From the IMG/VR virus record IMGVR_UViG_3300033156_001223, positions 41,842 to 105,841 of that record: a DNA stretch of 64,000 nucleotides. One strand, given 5' to 3'. This document shows positions 10,266-46,214 of this stretch, piece after piece. The DNA comes from a virus (lineage: Duplodnaviria; Heunggongvirae; Uroviricota; Caudoviricetes). The notes beneath the pieces are model-generated. The model was not told the origin of the DNA, did not search any database, and saw nothing but the letters and a program-made list of their open reading frames with translations. The translations under genes were made by a program, and so were the position numbers. Numbering within the stretch: position 1 is the stretch's first letter; each line of letters opens with the position of its first letter.

Positions 10266-10647
10266 AAGATTAAACTTAGTTATTATTTTAGCCCTAATTC
10301 TAGTGGCACTATTATGTGTTGCTACTAGTGGTACAGCTGAATATGTCCATAAAACAGTTAATACACAATGGTCAGGTTTAGCAGCTGTGGTGGTGGCAGC
10401 TACTGCTCTTATGACTGCACTAGTTTCCTTAGCAAAAATGGTTAATCACATGAATAATGATCTCATTCATCACTCAATAGAATCTCTAGAAGAAGATTTT
10501 ACTAGAAAGGAAAACGGGTTGCGTCACGAAGAACAACTAAGATCATTAACAGAAACCATGAAGCTTATTGATAGAAGATTGACTAAAATTGAAACTAAAC
10601 TGGATATGATTGAAAAGCACCTGGTGAACTACCCCTCATTGAAATGA
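10216..10647 (+). CDS. membrane-anchored coiled-coil protein (143 aa)
   Basis: Hydrophobic helix LVIILALILVALLCV; C-terminal coiled coil; its 3' end overlaps the tnpB 3' end. Confidence 0.4.
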   Translation: MNSNKRSNNSLQAAVNKRLNLVIILALILVALLCVATSGTAEYVHKTVNTQWSGLAAVVVAATALMTALVSLAKMVNHMNNDLIHHSIESLEEDFTRKENGLRHEEQLRSLTETMKLIDRRLTKIETKLDMIEKHLVNYPSLK

Positions 10648-11950
10648 GGAGTTTCCCGCTTCAACGAGCACTAACGCACTCTCCACGGGCGTAAATTCGG
10701 GCCGTCCCAGCCCTACTACGAACTTCAATCCTTCTTTCAATAAGTTCAAAGCTGCATTGTAATCCCTATCATGCTCCACTCCGCAGTTAGGACATCTCCA
10801 TTTTCTATCAAATAACTTAAGCTCCTCATTTTTATACCCACATACAGAGCAAAGTTTTGAAGAAGGATAAAATGGACGTACTTTGATACACTCTCTACCA
10901 TACATTCTTGCCTTGTAATCTAAATAAGAAACAAATCTCCCCCAACTCACATCTGCTATGTACTTAGCAAGTTCATTACCTTGAATTAGTCGTTTGACAT
11001 TCAGGTCTTCCACTACTATGGCTTGGTTATCGCCGATTATCCTTCTACTTAGTTTATGGAGAAAATCGTTTCTCTGGTTTACTACCTTCTCGTGAAGCTT
11101 TGCCAATTTTCTCTGGAGTTTATGATATTTATTGCTTCCTTTCTGTTTCTTCGATAATCTTCGTTGATGTTTTCTAAGTCTTTCTTCCATTTTCAGCAAA
11201 TATCTTGGATTTTTAACTTTTTCTCCTGCCGACGAAGTACAAAAATGAGTAATTCCTACATCTATAGCTACTGCTTTGTTTGTCTTTGGAAGTGGCTTTA
11301 TCTCTCTATCAACAAGAACATTAAGATAAAATTTCCCTGACGGAAGCTTAGTTATTGATATACTTCTGATTTTTCCTTCTATTTCCCTATGCTTCTTAAA
11401 TTTTATTGATTTCTCAAGTTTTGGTAATTTAATTCTATTTCCTTCTATATGGAAAAATTGCGGTATGGATATACTACCAGCCTCCTTCTTGCTCTTAAAC
11501 TTTGGAAACTTTGCAAATCCTTTGAAAAAATTTTTAAGAGCCATGTCAAGCCTCTTTACCGCCCCCTGAAGTGATTGGCTATTTGCCTCTTTAAGGAATG
11601 GGAACTCTTCTTTAAGTTTTGGAAGCATTTTCTTAGATTCATAATAATTCCACTTTTTGCCTTTTTCTTTATAATCTTCTTTTGCTATCTCCAAAATTTT
11701 ATTATAGACAAATCTACAGTGCCCTATCTGGCGATTTAAAAACCCTATTTGTCCTTTTGTAGGGTAGAGCCTAAATCTATAAGTATAAAGCATTTTTATT
11801 TCCTGCATGGGACATAATACACCACATCCATAAAAAAGCAAATAATAAGCCTTATTTTATAAAAAAAGAATGAAATTTGGGCTAAAAAAGTGAGCGGCCG
11901 CCACCGCCCACTTAGATTTTCTTTAAAATACCCAAACCTCAATTTTCCCG
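10560..11950 (-). mobile_element. putative IS200/IS605-family (IS1341-like, tnpB-only) element; boundaries approximate
   Basis: tnpB without an adjacent tnpA; hairpin CCTCAT-TTCA-ATGAGG overlapping the tnpB stop (about 10639-10658) is a right-end/omega-RNA candidate. Ends not determinable by eye. Confidence 0.35.
10636..11841 (-). CDS. tnpB: TnpB (IS200/IS605 family OrfB, RuvC-like RNA-guided nuclease)
   Basis: 401 aa; canonical OrfB N-terminus (MLYTYRFRLYPTKGQ...FLNRQIGHCRFVYN); C-terminal CxxC...CxxC zinc ribbon (CSVCGY...CPNCGVEHDRDYNAALNL). Confidence 0.85.
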   Translation of the reverse strand: MLFYGCGVLCPMQEIKMLYTYRFRLYPTKGQIGFLNRQIGHCRFVYNKILEIAKEDYKEKGKKWNYYESKKMLPKLKEEFPFLKEANSQSLQGAVKRLDMALKNFFKGFAKFPKFKSKKEAGSISIPQFFHIEGNRIKLPKLEKSIKFKKHREIEGKIRSISITKLPSGKFYLNVLVDREIKPLPKTNKAVAIDVGITHFCTSSAGEKVKNPRYLLKMEERLRKHQRRLSKKQKGSNKYHKLQRKLAKLHEKVVNQRNDFLHKLSRRIIGDNQAIVVEDLNVKRLIQGNELAKYIADVSWGRFVSYLDYKARMYGRECIKVRPFYPSSKLCSVCGYKNEELKLFDRKWRCPNCGVEHDRDYNAALNLLKEGLKFVVGLGRPEFTPVESALVLVEAGNSSFQ

Positions 11951-37466: not shown

Positions 37467-37658
37467 TCAATCAACTAAAAAGTGGAGTGGAGGGTGATTG
37501 CTATCCACTTCACTTTTATCTCCCTTCTTCTTTCCATACTTATAAAATAGATTCTCCAATTGCTTTTGTTGGGGAGGAGATATTGGGCCAAACCCAATTT
37601 TAATTAAATTATTAAAATCCCCCTCCTTAAATCTGATTGTCTTCTTTTTCCTACCCAT
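37467..37658 (-). CDS. small basic protein (63 aa)
   Basis: ORF. Confidence 0.3.
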   Translation of the reverse strand: MGRKKKTIRFKEGDFNNLIKIGFGPISPPQQKQLENLFYKYGKKKGDKSEVDSNHPPLHFLVD

Positions 37659-37718
37659 TTTATCCTCCTCTCTGGAATATTTAATAATTAAAAAGGGAGG
37701 GTGGCTGCCGAGCCATTT

Positions 37719-38075
37719 TTATGTTTTGGCAAAAGCTCGGCAGCCGATTATCTTTCCTTCCTCATCACGGACTGTTTCATCCACGATGAGGAAGTCTTCT
37801 CGCGGTAATCGTGCTGCAACTACCGCGGATACAATGAAATATATTCCCTCAGAGGGGGGAGGCAATTCTATTCCCTCTGGGGAATACTTGACCCTGTTGA
37901 TGGGGAGCCCTGGGGCGAGCTCTCCGATTTTTTCACGATGTTCCCGCAGCCGCAGTGGTTCTATAGCTGCGGGAATGGTAATCTCCCCCCCTCCATCAGG
38001 GTGGAGATTCACAGGATGCGGAGTAGTATTATACAATACCACCCCATTTATCACCACTTTTCCGAATTTTTCCAT
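37719..38075 (-). CDS. hypothetical protein (118 aa)
   Basis: ORF; 11-bp-stem hairpin overlaps its 3' end. Confidence 0.4.
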   Translation of the reverse strand: MEKFGKVVINGVVLYNTTPHPVNLHPDGGGEITIPAAIEPLRLREHREKIGELAPGLPINRVKYSPEGIELPPPSEGIYFIVSAVVAARLPREDFLIVDETVRDEEGKIIGCRAFAKT

Positions 38076-38094
38076 TTTCCTCCCTCCTTATTCA

Positions 38095-38280
38095 TCATTC
38101 ATCTCCAAGCTCCTCGATCAATTGATCGAGGTAGCTTTTTCTTGGTGGTATAAATTCCACTACATATGGGGGATTTTTTCTTTTACCCTCCTGCCATTCC
38201 AGTTCAGCCTCAGCCAGATGGCCGAGGCCGTAAAATTCCAGTTCATCCCTGATCCTCTCAAGCTTTTCCTTTCTTCGCAT
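38095..38280 (-). CDS. small protein (61 aa)
   Basis: SD AGAGGAGG upstream; conserved 20-nt motif just upstream. Confidence 0.4.
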   Translation of the reverse strand: MRRKEKLERIRDELEFYGLGHLAEAELEWQEGKRKNPPYVVEFIPPRKSYLDQLIEELGDE

Positions 38281-38335
38281 TCTGCACCTCCTCTCTTTAC
38301 CCTCCCTATTAGTTATAACAAATATATTTATATAT

Positions 38336-38776
38336 TTATAATTTATTAATAAGAAAAAATCTTGTGATTAGTCCTTGATCATCTAACTCTGCAACAATTC
38401 TCACATTCTTACTGGTAGTAAATACATGATTAATAATATCTAATGCAGTTATTTCTTCCTGATGCCCATTATCCCGAAATAACAACCCTCTCAAAGAATC
38501 ATTACATCTTACTGGTTTGATCAACGCTTTACTAACTGCTTCTCGATCCTTCACCAACATATTTTCAAGACCATATACTACATCCTCTACAGTAACTTCT
38601 TGATAATAACCAAGTTCTATTAAATCATCTACATAGAGTTCCGCCCCACAACTTACACACTTAGCTGAAAACTCTCCAGCTCCAGCATCACGCCAACGAA
38701 CTCCATCAAATCTCTTCATACCAATATCTGTAAAAGAAATATACTCTATCTTTTCGTGACAGTAAGGACACTTCAT
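38336..38776 (-). CDS. zinc-ribbon protein (146 aa)
   Basis: CPYCHEK...CVSCG; AGGAGG SD. Confidence 0.4.
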   Translation of the reverse strand: MKCPYCHEKIEYISFTDIGMKRFDGVRWRDAGAGEFSAKCVSCGAELYVDDLIELGYYQEVTVEDVVYGLENMLVKDREAVSKALIKPVRCNDSLRGLLFRDNGHQEEITALDIINHVFTTSKNVRIVAELDDQGLITRFFLINKL

Positions 38777-38821: not shown

Positions 38822-40894
38822 TTATGCTGCTACTCTTTCTAGCTCTTGTTGAGTAGGAAACTCAATATGTTGCAACAGAATCTCTACGTCTGGAATGTCA
38901 GGAATTCTCATTCCTGTTGCCAGGGCGGGTATTGGATTGGGACCAGTAGGCCAACTAGCTCCTCCTTTAGCAGCAGTATCAATGATGGTAGTTTTTAATT
39001 TCTCAAAATTGAGTCTCGCTAGAATATCCTCTATCGTATCCAATGGAAGAGTATTCACCCCTCTTAGCACTGGCTCATACTTAACTGGATCTGGTTTAAC
39101 CTCGATAACCGGAAATTTCTGAATCTTTTCAAACACTTTTTCATCAATTAAAGTGCCTGCCGATACCCCACCAATCGATTTTGCTAGTCTCATACCAATT
39201 GCTAGTTTAGGGGGTAGAGATATCTTTTTACTTACTTTTTTATTGAAATGTTCTAAGTAGCTAATCGGAGCATAATCTCCCTCTACATAATAAGGATGAC
39301 TACCCCGGTCTATTACTTTGGCAGTATTAGTTAATGCCTTAACTAGCACTTCTAAGTTCTTCCTCGACACTGTAGCTTCTTCGCTCAGAGTTTTGTCCAG
39401 CTCCTCTACTAATTTGTCTTGGGTATCTTCGATTCCCCTCAATTTGAGAAATTTAATGGGATTAAAAATACCAGAAGAAATAGCATCTCCTCGAGTAACA
39501 CTTTGTCCTCTTTTTACTATTACCTCTCTATCTGCAGGTACCCAGTGCTCTCTCTTATTGATGATAACTCTATGACCTCCCAACTCTGGATCCGGAATAA
39601 CGGCTTCTACTCTTCCGTGAACTTCAGCTAAAATAACCTCATTAGGAATATTCTCTGGGAATTCCAGGAGAACTGATAGCTTTTTGAATGGGCCGATATC
39701 CCCAGTACCGACGTGCCATCTATTAAGAGCTAATTGAGTAGTAGGTTCTCCTACTGCATGAGCCGCTTTCACTCCTACAAAATCTCCTTTCGGATGATCC
39801 TGTCCGGTCACATCTCTACCGAGGCATTTCTGACATACTCCGTGAACTGCCTCACATCTAAGAGGACTCCTTACCACTAACTCTCTTATATATTTGCGTG
39901 CATAACTGAGCAGTTCTGGAGTAACCAAAGTATTATGAGCAAATTTCTTGCCACCAATTTTTTGGCTCCCAGCCAGGTATCTACCAACAATGTTGGGGTC
40001 ATCCACTGACATCTTAATGCCACGAGTAGTACCACAGTCTGTTTCGGTTACTCTTAGATCAAGAACTGAATTCATAACTAATTTAGTTAACCTTCCCGGT
40101 TCACTAACCTCTTTAACCTTTGCTAAAGCTCCGGCACGAGAACCATACATACTAGTTAAATATTCCGGAATATCTAGCCCCTGAGCATACCCTTCTATGA
40201 TTGGAAATTCTATATAATCCCCCTGTAAGTCCTGAACCGCATTACCGAGTAGCATTTGCCTTAAGTGAGATGTTCCTCCACGTGAGCCCGATTCAACCAT
40301 AAGCCTGAAAGCATTGTTCTCTGGAAGCTTTTCTACTAGCTTATTTAATTTATTCAACATATTCTTCATAATTTTATTAGTTTGCTGTTTGGTCTCAGCC
40401 TTCCTCAAAGCATTCATTGCCTCAAACACAATTTTATCTCTTTGTTTTTGAATATTTTTTGGAACAGATAAATCATCAAGACCAAAACTGAAACCAGAGA
40501 AATAAGCTGCATTAAGCCCCACTTCTTTGAGTTTATCTAACAACACTGAATAATCTTTTGGTCTTTCCTTGGCTATCTTTGCTAGGTAATTTCTAAGTAC
40601 TTTTGCGGTTATTGGCTTAGTAAAAAGATGTTTGTCTGGGAGAAAAGATTGGATGAAAAGCCTCCCTGGAGTTGTAGTAGTCCTCCCTACTTTAACAACA
40701 TCATCTACATTGAGCTTTCCACTTTCCCAAGCCTTTAATACTTCACTAACAGATTTAAATTGTTTATTAGTTTTCTTTCCTTCTTTGGTAAGTAAATATA
40801 GTCCTAACACAATATCTTGGCGTGGTGCCCACATTACTTTGGATGTAGAAACGGACCATAGTATCCCAAACAATAACTCCATTTTTAAGAACAA
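38822..40894 (-). CDS. rpoC: RNA polymerase beta' subunit, C-terminal portion (continuation of the rpoBC fusion in another frame)
   Basis: APRQDIVLGLYLLT matches bacterial beta' PSQDVVLGLYYMT; PGRLFIQSFLP and YFSGFSFGLDDLSVP match downstream beta' blocks. Frame is open only from 40915 after TGA at 40916-40918; the listed TTG start is an artefact. Confidence 0.8.
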   Translation of the reverse strand: MFLKMELLFGILWSVSTSKVMWAPRQDIVLGLYLLTKEGKKTNKQFKSVSEVLKAWESGKLNVDDVVKVGRTTTTPGRLFIQSFLPDKHLFTKPITAKVLRNYLAKIAKERPKDYSVLLDKLKEVGLNAAYFSGFSFGLDDLSVPKNIQKQRDKIVFEAMNALRKAETKQQTNKIMKNMLNKLNKLVEKLPENNAFRLMVESGSRGGTSHLRQMLLGNAVQDLQGDYIEFPIIEGYAQGLDIPEYLTSMYGSRAGALAKVKEVSEPGRLTKLVMNSVLDLRVTETDCGTTRGIKMSVDDPNIVGRYLAGSQKIGGKKFAHNTLVTPELLSYARKYIRELVVRSPLRCEAVHGVCQKCLGRDVTGQDHPKGDFVGVKAAHAVGEPTTQLALNRWHVGTGDIGPFKKLSVLLEFPENIPNEVILAEVHGRVEAVIPDPELGGHRVIINKREHWVPADREVIVKRGQSVTRGDAISSGIFNPIKFLKLRGIEDTQDKLVEELDKTLSEEATVSRKNLEVLVKALTNTAKVIDRGSHPYYVEGDYAPISYLEHFNKKVSKKISLPPKLAIGMRLAKSIGGVSAGTLIDEKVFEKIQKFPVIEVKPDPVKYEPVLRGVNTLPLDTIEDILARLNFEKLKTTIIDTAAKGGASWPTGPNPIPALATGMRIPDIPDVEILLQHIEFPTQQELERVAA

Positions 40895-43800
40895 AAGTAG
40901 GAGCCTGGGGGATGGTCAAATCATAGACTGTCTTTCTCCCAATCGGTTTTACCGAAATAACCCGCTTCCAGGAAATCATATCATTCTCTATTAACTCTTT
41001 CCATCTCTGGTATAGAGGGTCATCACTATTTATTTTTTCAATAATTCCCATAGCAAAGTCTCTAGACATCCTATTACTACTATATCGTGGGTAAACAATG
41101 GATCTCAACTTCTTTGGTAATGGAATAATATCTCTTTTAGTAAATTTAGTAGGTAACTCTTTTAATCTCTTTTGTTTGTGATTATGCAAATAAATTTGAT
41201 CTTTCTTAGTCATAATATCTACTGAATTCAAATATGCTCTGTAATAATTTCTTTGCTGCCCTTTATAAGTATATTTGCTATTACTAATTACTGATCTGAC
41301 TCCCAAACTCATTGCTAACATCGATATCTCATAGGCCAGTCTTTCGCTAGTAGTAGAAATATATACCTCTTTACCCTTTTTAGAAATGGTGCCATCTCCT
41401 GCAAGAAGCCCAGAAAGAAGCCCCAATCTAAATTCATATGGAGTAGATAGAAAAAACGTGGGGAGATGCTTGTTGTTAGCTCCTTCTCCAAATAGCACTG
41501 GGAATTCTCCAGCTAGTTTGGTTGAATAGATACGCACAAAATCACTTCTACCTGTTGGGAATTTCCGTATTACTGCTCCTCCTGTTTTATTTAGTTTTTC
41601 CCTACAAATCTTCAGTAAGTATTCTTTCATTTCATCACTAATTGTAGAAATCCTTATTTGGGTATTCCCCTTTTTCCACCCCGTGCAACATCCTTCAGCA
41701 CAATACATTCCAAAAAGAAAACCAAGATCATAATCTAAATCAACCTCTTTTCCATCCATTTCAATTTTCGTAATTTTTTCCTCAGCGGGAATATTTCTTA
41801 ATACTGGTAAATACATACCAACAGATTCTTTAGGAGTTACTCTCTTTAGTTCCAATGTCTCTGGATCAAGACAAAGCAAAGAATGGTCGTTCGAGACTAT
41901 CAAAGTCTTTCCTGATTCAGCAACAACTTCATAACAAGGAACATTTTTATGAACTGAGTAGCTGTAAGGATTTACCCATTTAAGCTCCAAAGCCTTTGGA
42001 TCCATAGCAAGTACTTTAAGATTTTCCTTTACTCTAAATTCTTTAATCTTCCCAGTATCCTTAACTTTTTCATCCTTCGGGAAGTCCTTCAAGTCAGTGA
42101 GATGCACCTCATCGTCATTAAGATAGAATATTTCACCCAATACACTATCACCATCAAAATCAGCATTGAATCCAGCTGTTACTAATGGGTGAATGTGGAT
42201 TACTTTATCTCGAACTATTCTAGGATAGAAAGCCATCACTCCATATTTATGGAGTACCGGATCCCTTTTTAAATAGACTGGTCTATTAGCCATCTCCCTC
42301 TCAAGTGCCCTTCTAGCTGCTTCCTCCTTATTCTCAACTACTAATCTAGCCCTAGCCGGACTATATCCAGCTTCCACCAATTTTCTCACTACAATTGGTT
42401 CAAAGATTTTCCAGGCCATGTCCTCTGGTATACCAACTTCATCTAAATGGAGTGATGGATCAGGGACAATCACACCTCGAGAAGAAAGATCTTGTCTTCT
42501 TTTGAGTAGAGCACTTTGAAAGTAACCAAGTTTTGGGCTTGGTCCAATAATAATATCCATCACAGACTTAAGCTTACGATTTATGCCGACCTCGAGTCCA
42601 TCAAGCTCCAAAGCTTTAACCGCATCATACAATTTAGCATATACTTTCCCATACTCCGCTTCAGGAAACTCTTTTCTAGCTATAGGTATCTGATTGTTGA
42701 CCATAGCAATATTTCTATATAAACCATTAATATCATGGACAGATATTCCCCCTTGTTTAAGCTGAACTAGAGGTCTGAAGAAAGAAGGAATGACAACTAT
42801 GTTTTTTCTAAGAAATATTTCTTCTGGTTTCTTATTTAATTTAATTATATTCCTCAAAATCTTAATTTTTCTGGCTAATACTGATTTTCTCTGGTCGTTA
42901 GCAGTTTTAATTTCCTGGGTGGCCTTAGCCAACTCTTTCTTTGGATCCAGTCTTCGTAAAAGCATTCTGAAAGCATCCCCAAATTTGTATTTACCATCTG
43001 GAGTAATTTTTCCAGTACTATCTACTCCGAGTTTCCCAGAAACTATATCTTTAAAAGTAGCAGAATTTATCTCCAATAGAATGCATAATGCTCGTTCAAA
43101 TATAGGATTTGGAACTACCTCATTAAGAGGAATGTGGTTATATTTAGTGCCGAAGAACCCTCCAGTAAGTCTTGGGTCAAATAATCCCCCCTCCTCAGCT
43201 ACTGGGTTTCCTTTTTTCATTCTGATAATTTTAGTTGCATCTATTTCCCCATTCGAGAGCTTAAGAATATCTTCATCAAATAGAGGAACAAATTGGAGAA
43301 CGTTTCCGAGCTTCTCTACATTAATCCCCAAGGCCCGAAGGTAAGATTCAAATTTCTGGTAAGTTAGAGGAGTTTTAGGTCTGGGTATTGGTAGGCCTGA
43401 TTGGAAAGCATACCAGAAATCTGGATTATAGTCACTTTTGTAGGTTTGTGCTTCATAAAGGTTTGCTTTTGCTCCGTGAGCCAACATTGCATATAAACCA
43501 AGATGCCCCAATGACTGAGCACCACCTTCAGATGATCCAAGAGGCAACGCATCATAACTATACTTTTCTCCTGCCCCGGCTCCTCGGGCATGTAGTTTAG
43601 GTTCCGCCCGATGTTTTAATTTCATAATATATTGTGGTCCTATGAAGACATCCGGTATGGGTTTTCCAGTCTTCGGATCAACCAAATCTTCTTTATCTGG
43701 AATTTTCAATCTCTTCAATTCATCCCTGATTTTGGAATAATAGTTCCCCATAAAATTTTCTACTGGGTAAGGCTTTCCGGTCTTCTCTGCTATTTTTCCA

Positions 43801-46214
43801 GCTAAAGTTTCCAACACCTGCCCCATATTCATACGAGAAATTACTCCAAGAGGATTCAAAACCACATCTATGATTTTACCATCCTTAGTTCTAGGCATTT
43901 CCGAATCAGGAATGATTGCTCCAATTACTCCTTTGTTTCCGTGCCTATTAGCCAGTTTATCTCCAACTTGTGCCGGCTCGGTGGTACGAATATAAACCTT
44001 AACGAATTTTGGTCTTTTGACTACCTTAACGACCTTACCGGGTGAGGAACGATTCCAAGTTATAGATCTATCTCTTTCAGGTATAGCTAGTTTTTTAGAA
44101 AACTTGGCAAGCAAGAATTGATCAGGAGTGGGCAGTTCTTTGTGGATTACCAAGATAATTGGGTCTCCTTCTTCGACCATCTGCCCAACCTTAACTACTC
44201 CGTCATCATCTAATTTATTAAGCTGATCTTTAGTAAATAGAGTAGAGGGGAATAGAGAAATATATCTCTTTTTATTTAAAGTAGTATCCTTGTCGACATA
44301 TTGGGAAAATTCATATAAATGCTCACTAGTAAGTTTCTTAGCAGCAGACTCCGAAATAACAATAGCATCATCAATATTATGTCCTTTGAAAGGCATATAA
44401 GCTACTAGGAGATTCTTACCAAAGGCAAATCTTCCTTCTTTAGTGTAATTAGTATCAAACAACAAATCCCCTTTTTTTACTTTCTGTCCTTCTTTAACCA
44501 GTGGTTCACTATCCAAAAAACCATCTTGTAAAGGATAATCCTTTGGCATAGATATCTTGTGAGTCTTTCCGGACTTATCTTTAACGTAAATATACTCAGA
44601 AGTAACCTTTGAAACGGTTCCATTAACCGGCGATTTATTGAAGAAGATGCCCATACTATCCAGTAGCTCCTCAGAGATTGGTGTTCCATTTATGACTGGG
44701 AAAACTAATGGATATTCTCTCTCTTTCAAAGGCAATGCCTGCTCCAATTGTTTTACTGCCATAAGGACTCTATTTCCGGAATCATAGTTGAGAAATGGCA
44801 CTAATGAAGTTAGGTGACTAAAAAAATCTAGTGGGTGTAGAGTAAAATAATCTATCTTGTCTTTATTCACAAAACCAAATTTCCCTTTACGTAAAGCCAT
44901 CCACCTATTACCCTTTACTGGTTTGATACCGATTACTGAGTTATATACTTGTTCTGGAGTAAGAAATTCTCTTCTTCCTCTTTTATCTTTTAAAATAACT
45001 ACTGGTTTTCCATCTTTATTAAATCCAGAAACTGCTGATGCCAAGTGAAGAGTTGTTCCAATCTTAATATTGTCTGGAGTATGCACCGGATCTAAAAAAA
45101 GAAAAGTACTGGGATTAATCATTCTCTGCTTATCTGTAACCCGGTGGATGTCTCCGATTCCACCCTCCCCCATAATAGTAACTTTGTTGACTGCACTCAT
45201 AGCAGAGATTGGTCCAGTAAAAGATTCAACATTAGATATTTGGCTGTTTGTAAAGAATGAGCGAACGGCAGGGGTAAAAAAACTACTTAAGCCTAAATCA
45301 GCTATTTTTTTGCGCTTGTCAACCGTATTCTTTAATCTATTCTTCAAAATTACCATTTTTCTTAATCTTTCTCCAAGAATCTCCGATGGGGTCACTATTT
45401 GCTTAAATAAGAGTGAATCTCTATCATCCTCCTTTCCTCCTCGAAGTATTTCAATTAATCTCTCAAGAGACCTAATTAAAGTATCAACGTCCACTTTCTC
45501 GTATTTCTTTCCTAAAGTAGCTTCTGTAACTTCCGGAGTAAGGGTAGTAGAATCCAATAGTTTCTTAAACTCTTCAGCTGGGTTGGGGGGTGCTTTCTCG
45601 TATCCCAAAGCCCTAAATAACTTATTGTAATTTAATGTTTTTTTGTAATTAATAGCATAAATCTTATCTCCAACAATATTCCTTAACTTTTCCTCTCCTA
45701 CTCCCAAGGATAATAGCAACGGGATTAGGGGGATGTGGACAGTGCCATACTCGAGTAGAATAGTAAAGTCTTTTGGATTAAGAATTAGCTTAATACCTCT
45801 TCCTTTTAGATTGATTTGATTAAAATTTGCTTGGATGGTATTATCTGCCTTCTTTTCATGATACACACCTGGCAACAATCTCATCTGAGTAGGAATATGA
45901 TATTCAGAACCACCAACTAAAAAAGTAAAGCGAGGGGTTAAGATTGGGATTCTTCCAATCAACACTCTTTTCTGATCCAAAACCTTACCATCTTTCGTCT
46001 TTAATACTGCTGTAGCATAAACAGGGATGTCCCAAGTTCTATCCTGCCATCGGTATTCTCGTTGGATATTGTAGTCGTGGAGATCTTTGTCAAACTTTGC
46101 CTCTAAATCTTTTATCTCCAAACGATGATTCTTCCCCTCAACAGGGAAAAAATCCTTGATTGATTCTAAGACGGAACTGACATACTTACGGATACTGGCT
46201 TCAAACTGAGTCAT
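40767..46214 (-). CDS. rpoBC: RNA polymerase beta-beta' fusion (rpoB fused to the N-terminal part of rpoC), carrying an intein after NADFDGD
   Basis: 1815 aa; beta motif NRHGNKGVIGAIIPDSEMP...DVVLNPLGVISRMNMGQVLETLAG; beta' N-terminal GGLFDPRL; catalytic NADFDGD at 42147-42167; Hint/LAGLIDADG region follows. Confidence 0.85.
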   Translation of the reverse strand: MTQFEASIRKYVSSVLESIKDFFPVEGKNHRLEIKDLEAKFDKDLHDYNIQREYRWQDRTWDIPVYATAVLKTKDGKVLDQKRVLIGRIPILTPRFTFLVGGSEYHIPTQMRLLPGVYHEKKADNTIQANFNQINLKGRGIKLILNPKDFTILLEYGTVHIPLIPLLLSLGVGEEKLRNIVGDKIYAINYKKTLNYNKLFRALGYEKAPPNPAEEFKKLLDSTTLTPEVTEATLGKKYEKVDVDTLIRSLERLIEILRGGKEDDRDSLLFKQIVTPSEILGERLRKMVILKNRLKNTVDKRKKIADLGLSSFFTPAVRSFFTNSQISNVESFTGPISAMSAVNKVTIMGEGGIGDIHRVTDKQRMINPSTFLFLDPVHTPDNIKIGTTLHLASAVSGFNKDGKPVVILKDKRGRREFLTPEQVYNSVIGIKPVKGNRWMALRKGKFGFVNKDKIDYFTLHPLDFFSHLTSLVPFLNYDSGNRVLMAVKQLEQALPLKEREYPLVFPVINGTPISEELLDSMGIFFNKSPVNGTVSKVTSEYIYVKDKSGKTHKISMPKDYPLQDGFLDSEPLVKEGQKVKKGDLLFDTNYTKEGRFAFGKNLLVAYMPFKGHNIDDAIVISESAAKKLTSEHLYEFSQYVDKDTTLNKKRYISLFPSTLFTKDQLNKLDDDGVVKVGQMVEEGDPIILVIHKELPTPDQFLLAKFSKKLAIPERDRSITWNRSSPGKVVKVVKRPKFVKVYIRTTEPAQVGDKLANRHGNKGVIGAIIPDSEMPRTKDGKIIDVVLNPLGVISRMNMGQVLETLAGKIAEKTGKPYPVENFMGNYYSKIRDELKRLKIPDKEDLVDPKTGKPIPDVFIGPQYIMKLKHRAEPKLHARGAGAGEKYSYDALPLGSSEGGAQSLGHLGLYAMLAHGAKANLYEAQTYKSDYNPDFWYAFQSGLPIPRPKTPLTYQKFESYLRALGINVEKLGNVLQFVPLFDEDILKLSNGEIDATKIIRMKKGNPVAEEGGLFDPRLTGGFFGTKYNHIPLNEVVPNPIFERALCILLEINSATFKDIVSGKLGVDSTGKITPDGKYKFGDAFRMLLRRLDPKKELAKATQEIKTANDQRKSVLARKIKILRNIIKLNKKPEEIFLRKNIVVIPSFFRPLVQLKQGGISVHDINGLYRNIAMVNNQIPIARKEFPEAEYGKVYAKLYDAVKALELDGLEVGINRKLKSVMDIIIGPSPKLGYFQSALLKRRQDLSSRGVIVPDPSLHLDEVGIPEDMAWKIFEPIVVRKLVEAGYSPARARLVVENKEEAARRALEREMANRPVYLKRDPVLHKYGVMAFYPRIVRDKVIHIHPLVTAGFNADFDGDSVLGEIFYLNDDEVHLTDLKDFPKDEKVKDTGKIKEFRVKENLKVLAMDPKALELKWVNPYSYSVHKNVPCYEVVAESGKTLIVSNDHSLLCLDPETLELKRVTPKESVGMYLPVLRNIPAEEKITKIEMDGKEVDLDYDLGFLFGMYCAEGCCTGWKKGNTQIRISTISDEMKEYLLKICREKLNKTGGAVIRKFPTGRSDFVRIYSTKLAGEFPVLFGEGANNKHLPTFFLSTPYEFRLGLLSGLLAGDGTISKKGKEVYISTTSERLAYEISMLAMSLGVRSVISNSKYTYKGQQRNYYRAYLNSVDIMTKKDQIYLHNHKQKRLKELPTKFTKRDIIPLPKKLRSIVYPRYSSNRMSRDFAMGIIEKINSDDPLYQRWKELIENDMISWKRVISVKPIGRKTVYDLTIPQAPTFVLKNGVIVWDTMVRFYIQSNVGTTPRYCVRTIFTYQRRKEN
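40863..42146 (-). other. intein (Hint domain with double-motif LAGLIDADG homing endonuclease), 428 aa
   Basis: Starts with Ser directly after DFDGD (SVLGEIFYL); block B ESGKTLIVSNDHSLLC; LAGLIDADG motifs LFGMYCAEG and LLAGDGT; block F/G VYDLTIPQAPTFVLKNGVIVWD then +1 Thr. Confidence 0.7.

Follow-up and report, generated by a model that had tools for sequence, protein, structure and literature searches.

An intein ending in Trp-Asp within the catalytic loop of a phage RNA polymerase, and the Asp-terminal family to which it leads

What is to be made of an intein that interrupts a multisubunit RNA polymerase within its most conserved loop and that ends in Trp-Asp, where His-Asn is expected? This question is raised by a 64,000-nucleotide (nt) stretch of viral DNA, hereafter the window (IMG/VR record IMGVR_UViG_3300033156_001223, positions 41,842 to 105,841), in which a gene for fused RNA polymerase beta and beta' subunits is interrupted directly after the Mg2+-binding motif NADFDGD. 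Our analysis identifies positions 40863-42146 as a genuine full-length mobile intein within the beta' Mg loop of a phage RNA polymerase. It is very probable that this element is an Asp-terminal intein, composed of a Hint splicing domain and a LAGLIDADG homing endonuclease, that splices in an intact allele, and that the host gene of the copy in the window is broken as assembled. We rate the family reached from this locus as a more interesting result than the locus itself. The features that define the intein and its insertion point are as follows, with lengths in amino acids (aa) and residues of the open reading frame (ORF) numbered from its start.

42168-46214, minus strand: N-extein, RNA polymerase beta continuing in one ORF into N-terminal beta', aa 1-1349 (Pfam, translation)
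42147-42167, minus strand: NADFDGD, the catalytic Mg2+-binding loop of beta', ORF aa 1350-1356
40863-42146, minus strand: intein of 428 aa (Ser1 through Asp428) with a Hint splicing domain and a LAGLIDADG homing endonuclease (Pfam, match in the Protein Data Bank, AlphaFold2, Foldseek)
41874-41906, minus strand: block B, TLIVSNDHSLL (Ser85-x-Asp87-His88-Ser89)
41688-41729, minus strand: LAGLIDADG motif 1, DLGFLFGMYCAEGC, with catalytic acid Glu151
41388-41429, minus strand: LAGLIDADG motif 2, RLGLLSGLLAGDGT, with catalytic acid Asp251
40863-40931, minus strand: blocks F and G, TVYDLTIPQAPTFVLKNGVIVWD, with block-F Asp409, penultimate Trp427 and terminal Asp428
40857-40862, minus strand: Thr+1 (the splice nucleophile) and Met+2, the sole in-frame codons of the C-extein
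Intein-free target sequence around the insertion point: ...GCTGATTTTGATGGTGAT / ACTATGGCAGTATTTACT..., the slash marking the point of insertion

Both parts of the intein are recognized by Pfam profiles, namely PF14890 Intein_splicing (E=1.1e-12; 48.5 bits, the cut-off being 35.8), PF14528 LAGLIDADG_3 (E=2.8e-16, intein aa 238-308) and PF05204 Hom_end (E=2.5e-5). Among solved structures, the closest in sequence is PI-PkoII (2cw7, 6e-9). With 11 relatives as input, AlphaFold2 gave a model with a mean predicted local distance difference test score of 91.1 and a predicted template modelling (TM) score of 0.89, in which no segment is of low confidence. Over the whole length, Foldseek matched this model to PI-PkoII (2cw7), the TliVMA intein (7qss) and PI-PfuI (1dq3), with E from 2.6e-23 to 1e-21 and TM scores of 0.72-0.73; PI-SceI came next after those three, and the endonuclease part matches I-DmoI with target TM scores of 0.64-0.74. 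Every hallmark of inteins that we examined is present except the His-Asn terminus. Block B reads Ser85-Asn-Asp-His88, with Ser replacing the usual Thr of Thr-x-x-His, Asp409 in VYDLT occupies position F:4, and the nucleophiles at position 1 (Ser1) and position +1 (Thr) are both there. Block G ends in Trp427-Asp428 where a penultimate His followed by Asn is expected; block F likewise lacks its His, with Pro416 in that place. The terminal Asp is encoded by GAT both in the window and in a sister contig, L002, that is described below.

The host is equally well defined. ORF 40767-46214 (minus strand, 1815 aa) encodes a beta subunit that runs without a stop into N-terminal beta', and upstream of the intein it matches RNA_pol_Rpb2_6 (3e-70), Rpb2_3, Rpb1_1 and Rpb1_2 (1.7e-21). 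Rpb1 domains 1-5 occur in order, together with the NADFDGD loop, as in beta' of a multisubunit RNA polymerase. The last Asp of this motif, which aligns in more than 50 homologues, is intein residue -1. A search with beta' gave 1750 homologues. In 30 intein-free phage-type homologues the sequence is contiguous (NADFDGD-[TAKQI]M..[FHY]VP.S..A..EA), as it is in bacterial beta' sequences, and the splice junctions are therefore fixed independently by the host protein. Asp precedes both junctions; if they were moved by one residue (intein D...W), positions 1 and +1 would both be without a nucleophile. Assignment to class 3 (WCT) was rejected, with F:4 being Asp409 and not Cys and with Ser1 present; a naturally split intein was likewise rejected, as blocks A-G all lie in one ORF (40863-42146) and the frame break is in the extein, not in the intein. 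These results uphold all that the initial annotation, made from the letters alone, had claimed for the intein itself. Its coordinates and listed residues are exact in translation, its assignment to Hint and LAGLIDADG is borne out by profile and by fold, the insertion is directly after NADFDGD, and Ser1, Thr+1 and the Trp-Asp terminus are all present. Its statement that a C-terminal Asp is known in a minority of inteins is also correct, such inteins being rare but on record as still able to splice (Mills, Johnson & Perler 2014, PMC4031507).

Whether the Trp-Asp ending is a defect can be judged from related inteins. A phmmer search with the intein against 1.84 billion representative proteins gave 4071 matches at E<=1e-3, and all family counts given here are drawn from the best 150 of these. 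Many of the 150 carry an intein at about residue 1400-1900 of fused beta-beta' polymerases of 1900-2900 aa, at the same DFDGD/TM site. Among them are 54 inteins of an Asp type at this site, in which the terminal Asp is invariant (54/54). A nucleophile is found in all 54 at position 1 (Ser in 33, Cys in 15, Thr in 6) and again at position +1 (Thr in 51, Ser in 2, Cys in 1). Block B follows S-x-D-H-S (Ser 51 or Thr 3, Asp 48, His 44, Ser 54), and block F follows Y-D-[LI]-T-[VI]-P...T-F (Tyr 49, Asp 54, Thr 50, Pro 51, Thr 47). His is missing from block F and from the penultimate position in every one of the 54; the penultimate residue is most often Trp (25), Tyr (12) or Gln (11), and Trp-Asp is the commonest ending. 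Each of the two endonuclease acids is kept in 52 of the 54. These relatives are only 28-42% identical, and the window intein has all of the conserved residues of the type. Because the same ending and residue set recur in 54 such diverged relatives, the Trp-Asp/Thr ending is a family trait and not decay. Trp-Asp is thus non-canonical, as initially annotated, but it is no oddity of a single copy, since it is the commonest ending among at least 54 Asp-terminal inteins at the site.

The +1 position provides a further indication of function. Among the 30 intein-free homologues Thr occupies this position in 20, with Ala, Lys, Gln or Ile in the other ten, compared with a nucleophile in all 54 inteins of the Asp type (Fisher p=1e-5). 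This enrichment favors ligation of the exteins and not mere cleavage.

The Asp-terminal ending itself is a known rare variant, and a large RNA polymerase family that carries it is undescribed as far as we could find. Searches of the open literature (subscription papers excluded) yielded no description of phage beta' inteins, of the DFDGD/TM insertion site or of an invariant-Asp family, and no papers on inteins together with RNA polymerase and NADFDGD. Those on Asp-terminal inteins returned, beyond the 2014 review, only papers that cite Amitai et al. 2004 among their references. A 2023 paper mentions an intein cluster with atypical C-terminal residues that is shared with giant viruses (PMC10710043).

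Given an established architecture and fold, exact splice junctions and residues conserved across the family, we infer the following chemistry. In the first step, Ser1 would undergo an N-O acyl shift, aided by the block B Ser-x-Asp-His. In the second, Thr+1 would take over the N-extein by transesterification. In the third, Asp428 would cyclize to a cyclic anhydride, not to a succinimide, and the intein would be freed without a block-F or penultimate His. An O-N shift would then yield a continuous catalytic loop, ...NADFDGD-TMAVF.... Cyclization of the C-terminal residue is how inteins that end in Asp or Gln splice (PMC4031507), and help with the third step would most obviously come from the penultimate residue, which is conserved as an aromatic one or Gln. 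The endonuclease, whose catalytic acids are so widely retained, would home the element into intein-free alleles, and close intein-free homologues do exist.

Several consequences follow for intein chemistry and for the phage. So far only isolated inteins with C-terminal Asp have been described or tested, and more than 50 natural sequences that have an invariant Asp, lack the histidines and often lack Cys make up a comparative set for the third step without Asn. The family is also a possible source of Cys-free splicing tools that are insensitive to redox conditions. With the insert in its most conserved loop the polymerase is dead until splicing, so the rate of splicing could gate phage transcription. 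A bolder proposal, which we consider unlikely, is that Asp-terminal inteins without histidines constitute a distinct mechanistic class suited to the catalytic centers of viral RNA polymerases. In such a class, anhydride cleavage would be backed by the aromatic or Gln penultimate residue; splicing could be conditional on pH or Mg2+ and act as a transcription switch, because Asp must be protonated or metal-bound to cyclize; and the paired deletions described below would be a recurrent by-product of mobility. If this were true, the intein would be a post-translational switch on phage transcription and not a passive parasite.

Known inteins offer partial parallels. PI-PkoII, PI-PfuI and TliVMA, and more distantly PI-SceI, share the fold and overall plan of the window intein, in which a LAGLIDADG endonuclease with two motifs and an additional DNA-recognition region interrupts the Hint domain. 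However, the archaeal intein endonucleases are only 16-18% identical to the window intein, and the inteins reside in archaeal and yeast proteins (DNA polymerase, ribonucleotide reductase or V-ATPase), whereas the host here is a phage RNA polymerase. Inteins of the PI-PkoII, PI-PfuI and TliVMA kind are usually described with the standard His-Asn C-terminus. The Chy RIR1 intein of Carboxydothermus hydrogenoformans also splices with Asp where the terminal Asn would be (Amitai, Dassa & Pietrokovski 2004, cited in PMC4031507). The window intein resembles this type in its features (Asp428, Ser1 and Thr+1). Chy RIR1 resides in a bacterial ribonucleotide reductase and was described as a unique case, whereas Asp is invariant here in at least 54 inteins. 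The Gln-terminal inteins in the ribonucleotide reductase of Chilo iridescent virus and in Pyrococcus abyssi Pol II similarly have a terminus other than Asn that can cyclize, and one of them is viral, but the residue is Gln and not Asp, and reversion to Asn improves splicing in some of them (PMC4031507).

RNA polymerase inteins have been catalogued as well. They include the archaeal Mja rPol A' and A'' and Nph rPol A'' and the RPB2, RPA2 and RPC2 inteins of eukaryotes and nucleocytoplasmic large DNA viruses (PMC1635734), and 14 inteins in COG0086 proteins of Euryarchaeota (PMC4760082). These likewise occupy large subunits of multisubunit polymerases at insertion points near the active center. 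Unlike the inteins described here, those in PMC1635734 and PMC4760082 include no bacterial-type or phage beta' host and no Asp terminus, and the RPB2 and RPA2 inteins end in Gly-Asn. For the anhydride itself there is a chemical precedent in the FrpC self-processing module, which undergoes Asp-Pro autocleavage via an aspartic anhydride (PMC7846742). FrpC is not an intein: it responds to Ca2+, does not ligate and folds differently, and the comparison is a mechanistic analogy only.

The initial annotation assumed that the host gene is intact, and here it has to be corrected. The following features surround the break.

40892-40952, minus strand: 61 nt of intein block F (VKPIGRKTVYDLTIPQAPTF), present in the window and absent from L002
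40855-40856, minus strand: deletion junction; the missing 71 nt are CAGTATTT...AATCTTTTT, encoding AVFTPLTNDAVKEMQKMLPSSNLF (L002 alignment)
40767-40856, minus strand: out-of-frame tail of ORF1, VRFYIQSNVGTTPRYCVRTIFTYQRRKEN followed by a stop; not extein
38822-40855, minus strand: remaining beta', 677 aa, starting SVSTSKVMWAPRQDIVLGLY..., in a frame different from that of the intein (Pfam Rpb1_3, Rpb1_4, Rpb1_5)

The window lacks 71 nt of conserved C-extein between 40856 and 40855, only 8 nt past the splice junction, and the reading frame shifts. What remains of the C-extein in-frame is Thr-Met plus one base. The C-extein had been given as TMV, the third codon of which is made by the deletion junction; the true C-extein reads TMAVFTPLTNDAVKEMQKMLPSSNLF..., with TMAVFTP as found in L002. 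Past Thr-Met, the frame of ORF1 reads VRFYIQSNVG... to a stop at 40767 and is not beta'. The 71 nt account for 24 conserved beta' residues, and the coding sequence of the double-psi barrel is interrupted in the window; between DFDGD and LGLY there are about 42 residues in homologues versus 19 in the window. As assembled, the window copy cannot yield a working beta'.

L002 (Joint Genome Institute (JGI) 3300033150, contig Ga0366835_1032696, 6962 bp) was reached via protein P0121, in which the intein is 100% identical and the end diverges. This contig and the window are 100.000% identical over 1040 + 5815 nt, and two indels are their only differences. L002 has 71 extra nt exactly at the break, which code for exactly the missing conserved segment, and it lacks the 61 nt of block F listed above. 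When the 71 nt are restored to the window, a single open ORF of 2487 aa results (beta-beta' plus intein), with no other stop or frameshift, and the restored extein peptide fits the family consensus. Since the window intein and the L002 extein rebuild this ORF without any other difference, an intact allele, to all appearances, exists or did so very recently. Exact-protein look-ups of P0002, the downstream beta' gene call of the source contig, and of the upstream 336-aa gene gave no match, that of the downstream 146-aa gene gave L002 only, and cluster look-ups placed the phage on two contigs only, the source of the window and L002. Nothing was found by scanning JGI metagenome contigs with the reconstructed junction or IMG/VR with C-terminal beta'.

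The start that the gene caller chose for the downstream beta' gene of L002 (L002:1073-3181) is Met+2 (MAVFTPL...), right after the codon for the splice-site Thr, and GGGA lies 4 nt upstream of this start. The position is probably a coincidence, because Thr-Met is conserved extein sequence.

How the two lesions arose is less easily settled. On the 142,619-bp source contig the gene was called as P0271 (1815 aa) and P0002 (662 aa), which split at the same place, so the frameshift is present in that contig. The breakpoints share 0 and 1 nt of microhomology, equal to random positions, which led us to reject replication slippage and k-mer collapse as unlikely causes. A programmed frameshift or translational bypass was rejected because 24 conserved residues are missing and no bases are added, and intron-like excision because both missing segments code for conserved protein. 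The deletions are 36 nt apart and together comprise 61 + 71 = 132 nt, or 44 codons; this sum is divisible by three, and a haplotype with both deletions would therefore remain in frame. In addition, L002 starts at intein residue 53, and the contig of the nearest relative, L001, ends at about residue 375 (L001:2517). These assembly breaks inside the intein suggest strain-level heterogeneity of the intein.

One explanation is that the 71-nt deletion is real and dominant, and that the window represents a defective or decaying genome with a polymerase gene only just inactivated, perhaps after faulty repair of a double-strand break during homing. The two contigs would then be separate defective variants. 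The junction is present in the source contig and its gene calls, the near absence of microhomology suits end-joining over slippage or k-mer collapse, and the two lesions lie together on the same side of a mobile element. However, no other difference is found in 6.8 kb and the reconstructed ORF is clean, a phage that encodes its polymerase would not be expected to live on without a universally conserved part of beta', and two distinct lethal lesions, each dominating a sample, are hard to imagine without a helper genome. We take this explanation as a serious possibility that falls somewhat short of being probable.

Alternatively, the frameshift might not occur in any viable phage, and an intact haplotype might have been mixed with one or more deleted ones, perhaps one that carries both deletions, by assembler paths through two adjacent bubbles, with the window following the intact left and deleted right branches and L002 the deleted left and intact right. 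The complementarity of the two lesions over such a short distance fits this idea, as do the perfect identity elsewhere, the assembly breaks within the intein and the presence of the phage on only two contigs. De Bruijn and other k-mer assemblies, however, contain only k-mers that are present in reads. Molecules with each of the deletions must then exist in the libraries, and presumably do, and a sum divisible by three has a one-in-three chance of being accidental. Mixed haplotypes are a possible account that we hold only tentatively. For the quality control of assemblies, the case is one of two otherwise identical contigs with different frameshifting deletions at one mobile-element edge.

Our preferred reading, that of a mobile Asp-terminal intein that splices in an intact allele, has to be weighed against several points. 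Both contigs are lesioned at the C-terminal end of the intein, and none shows the intact allele. Thr is the commonest native residue at +1, so the extein accounts for part of the conservation there. With the block-F and penultimate histidines absent, the chemistry of the third step is a guess, and the mechanism is unsettled even for Chy RIR1, the one characterized Asp-terminal intein.

A rival account is that of a degenerate, non-splicing intein. On such an account, which we judge very unlikely, Trp-Asp and the missing histidines would be signs of decay and the polymerase gene a pseudogene, consistent with the absence of the canonical His-Asn and block-F His and with the frame being broken in both contigs. 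However, the ending, the residue set and both nucleophiles are preserved throughout the 54 diverged relatives, neither endonuclease acid has been lost, most of the relatives run to 1900-2900 aa or more without interruption, and the extein is under strong purifying selection (see below). It is scarcely credible that the element is a cleavage-only module, in which Asp428 cuts and the polymerase is assembled from beta-beta'N and beta'C as in phages with a split beta': mutant Asp-terminal Chy inteins reportedly cleave N- and C-terminally instead of splicing, and the Met+2 gene start in L002 would agree with such a module, but a cut directly after the Mg-binding Asp would sever the catalytic loop from the strand that follows it in the same double-psi barrel, a +1 nucleophile is universal in the inteins and not in the intein-free homologues, and the equally universal Ser, Cys or Thr at position 1 is unneeded for C-terminal cleavage alone.

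The nearest relative provides a view of the history of the splicing element. L001 (protein P0001) is a 2.5-kb contig whose extein is identical to that of the window at 93% of protein, 80% of DNA and 50% of third-codon positions; the site is again occupied by an intein with Ser1, 40% identical to ours. The difference between protein and third-position identity implies an old split under strong purifying selection. Either the intein has long been kept under weak constraint outside its catalytic blocks, or it has been replaced by homing. No homologue was detected among 50,697 deposited phage genomes by blastn with the whole gene or tblastn with the intein. The L001 protein (NCBI RLF38466.1) is filed in a metagenome-assembled genome, 'Thermoplasmata archaeon' DRN12, and is annotated 'hypothetical protein', although it encodes a bacterial-type phage beta' with an intein; L001 is most likely a mis-binned viral fragment. 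Genes of this kind are easily miscalled, as is evident from this entry in an archaeal bin and from the division of the 2487-aa gene into two proteins in the source annotation.

The same insertion site is also occupied by a second type of intein. Among the best 150 matches, 42 inteins (P0123-P0270, for example P0141, P0147, P0124 and P0173) are allelic at DFDGD/TM and end in Leu-Ser-Asn, with a penultimate Ser and mostly Thr at +1. Position 1 is mostly Gln, Leu, Asp, Ala or Glu, with a nucleophile in only 2, and block B reads DDDPRAV without His in the members inspected. Block F is YDLTVP..TF as in the Asp type, and F:4 is Asp. The two types are homologous and have the endonuclease and insertion point in common, but the oddity of the Ser-Asn type is at its N-terminal end. 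It fits none of class 1, class 2 (there is no Cys+1) and class 3 (there is no Cys at F:4).

Homologous Asp-terminal inteins also occur at other sites, adjoining T[SA]ETGYIQR and TFHxxG motifs in larger polymerases (P0163, P0207, P0220, P0227, P0229, P0235, P0265, P0139, P0228 and P0236). They end in Arg-Asp, Tyr-Asp, Ala-Asp, Lys-Asp or Phe-Asp, followed by Thr, and several of the proteins contain three to seven intein-like stretches each. The hosts are probably Rpb1-like subunits of giant viruses. We take T[SA]ETGY and TFHxxG to be the bridge helix and trigger loop of Rpb1; with insertions at these sites, the Asp ending would track the intein lineage and not a particular extein.

Without the intein, the host of the window copy (40767-46214 plus 38822-40855) is a single-chain beta-beta' fusion of about 2059 aa, and many relatives are similar fusions of 1900-2900 aa. 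A survey of RNA polymerase-encoding Caudovirales names crAssphage alone as having a beta-beta' fusion, and inteins do not come up in it. The gene lies in a neighborhood with a tail sheath, a ribonucleotide reductase, a UvsX-like recombinase, a family A DNA polymerase, a transposase and many ORFs without a family, which indicates a tailed phage; no tRNAs were found in the window. A local G+C peak (0.47-0.48, compared with about 0.36-0.40 nearby) at 37600-38200 spans two overlapping ORFs, 37719-38075 (minus strand) and 37726-38349 (plus strand), neither of them assigned a family. The transposase, a 401-aa ORF at 10636-11841 (minus strand), matches PHROG phrog_506 at 1e-130 and would be a second mobile element of this phage genome.

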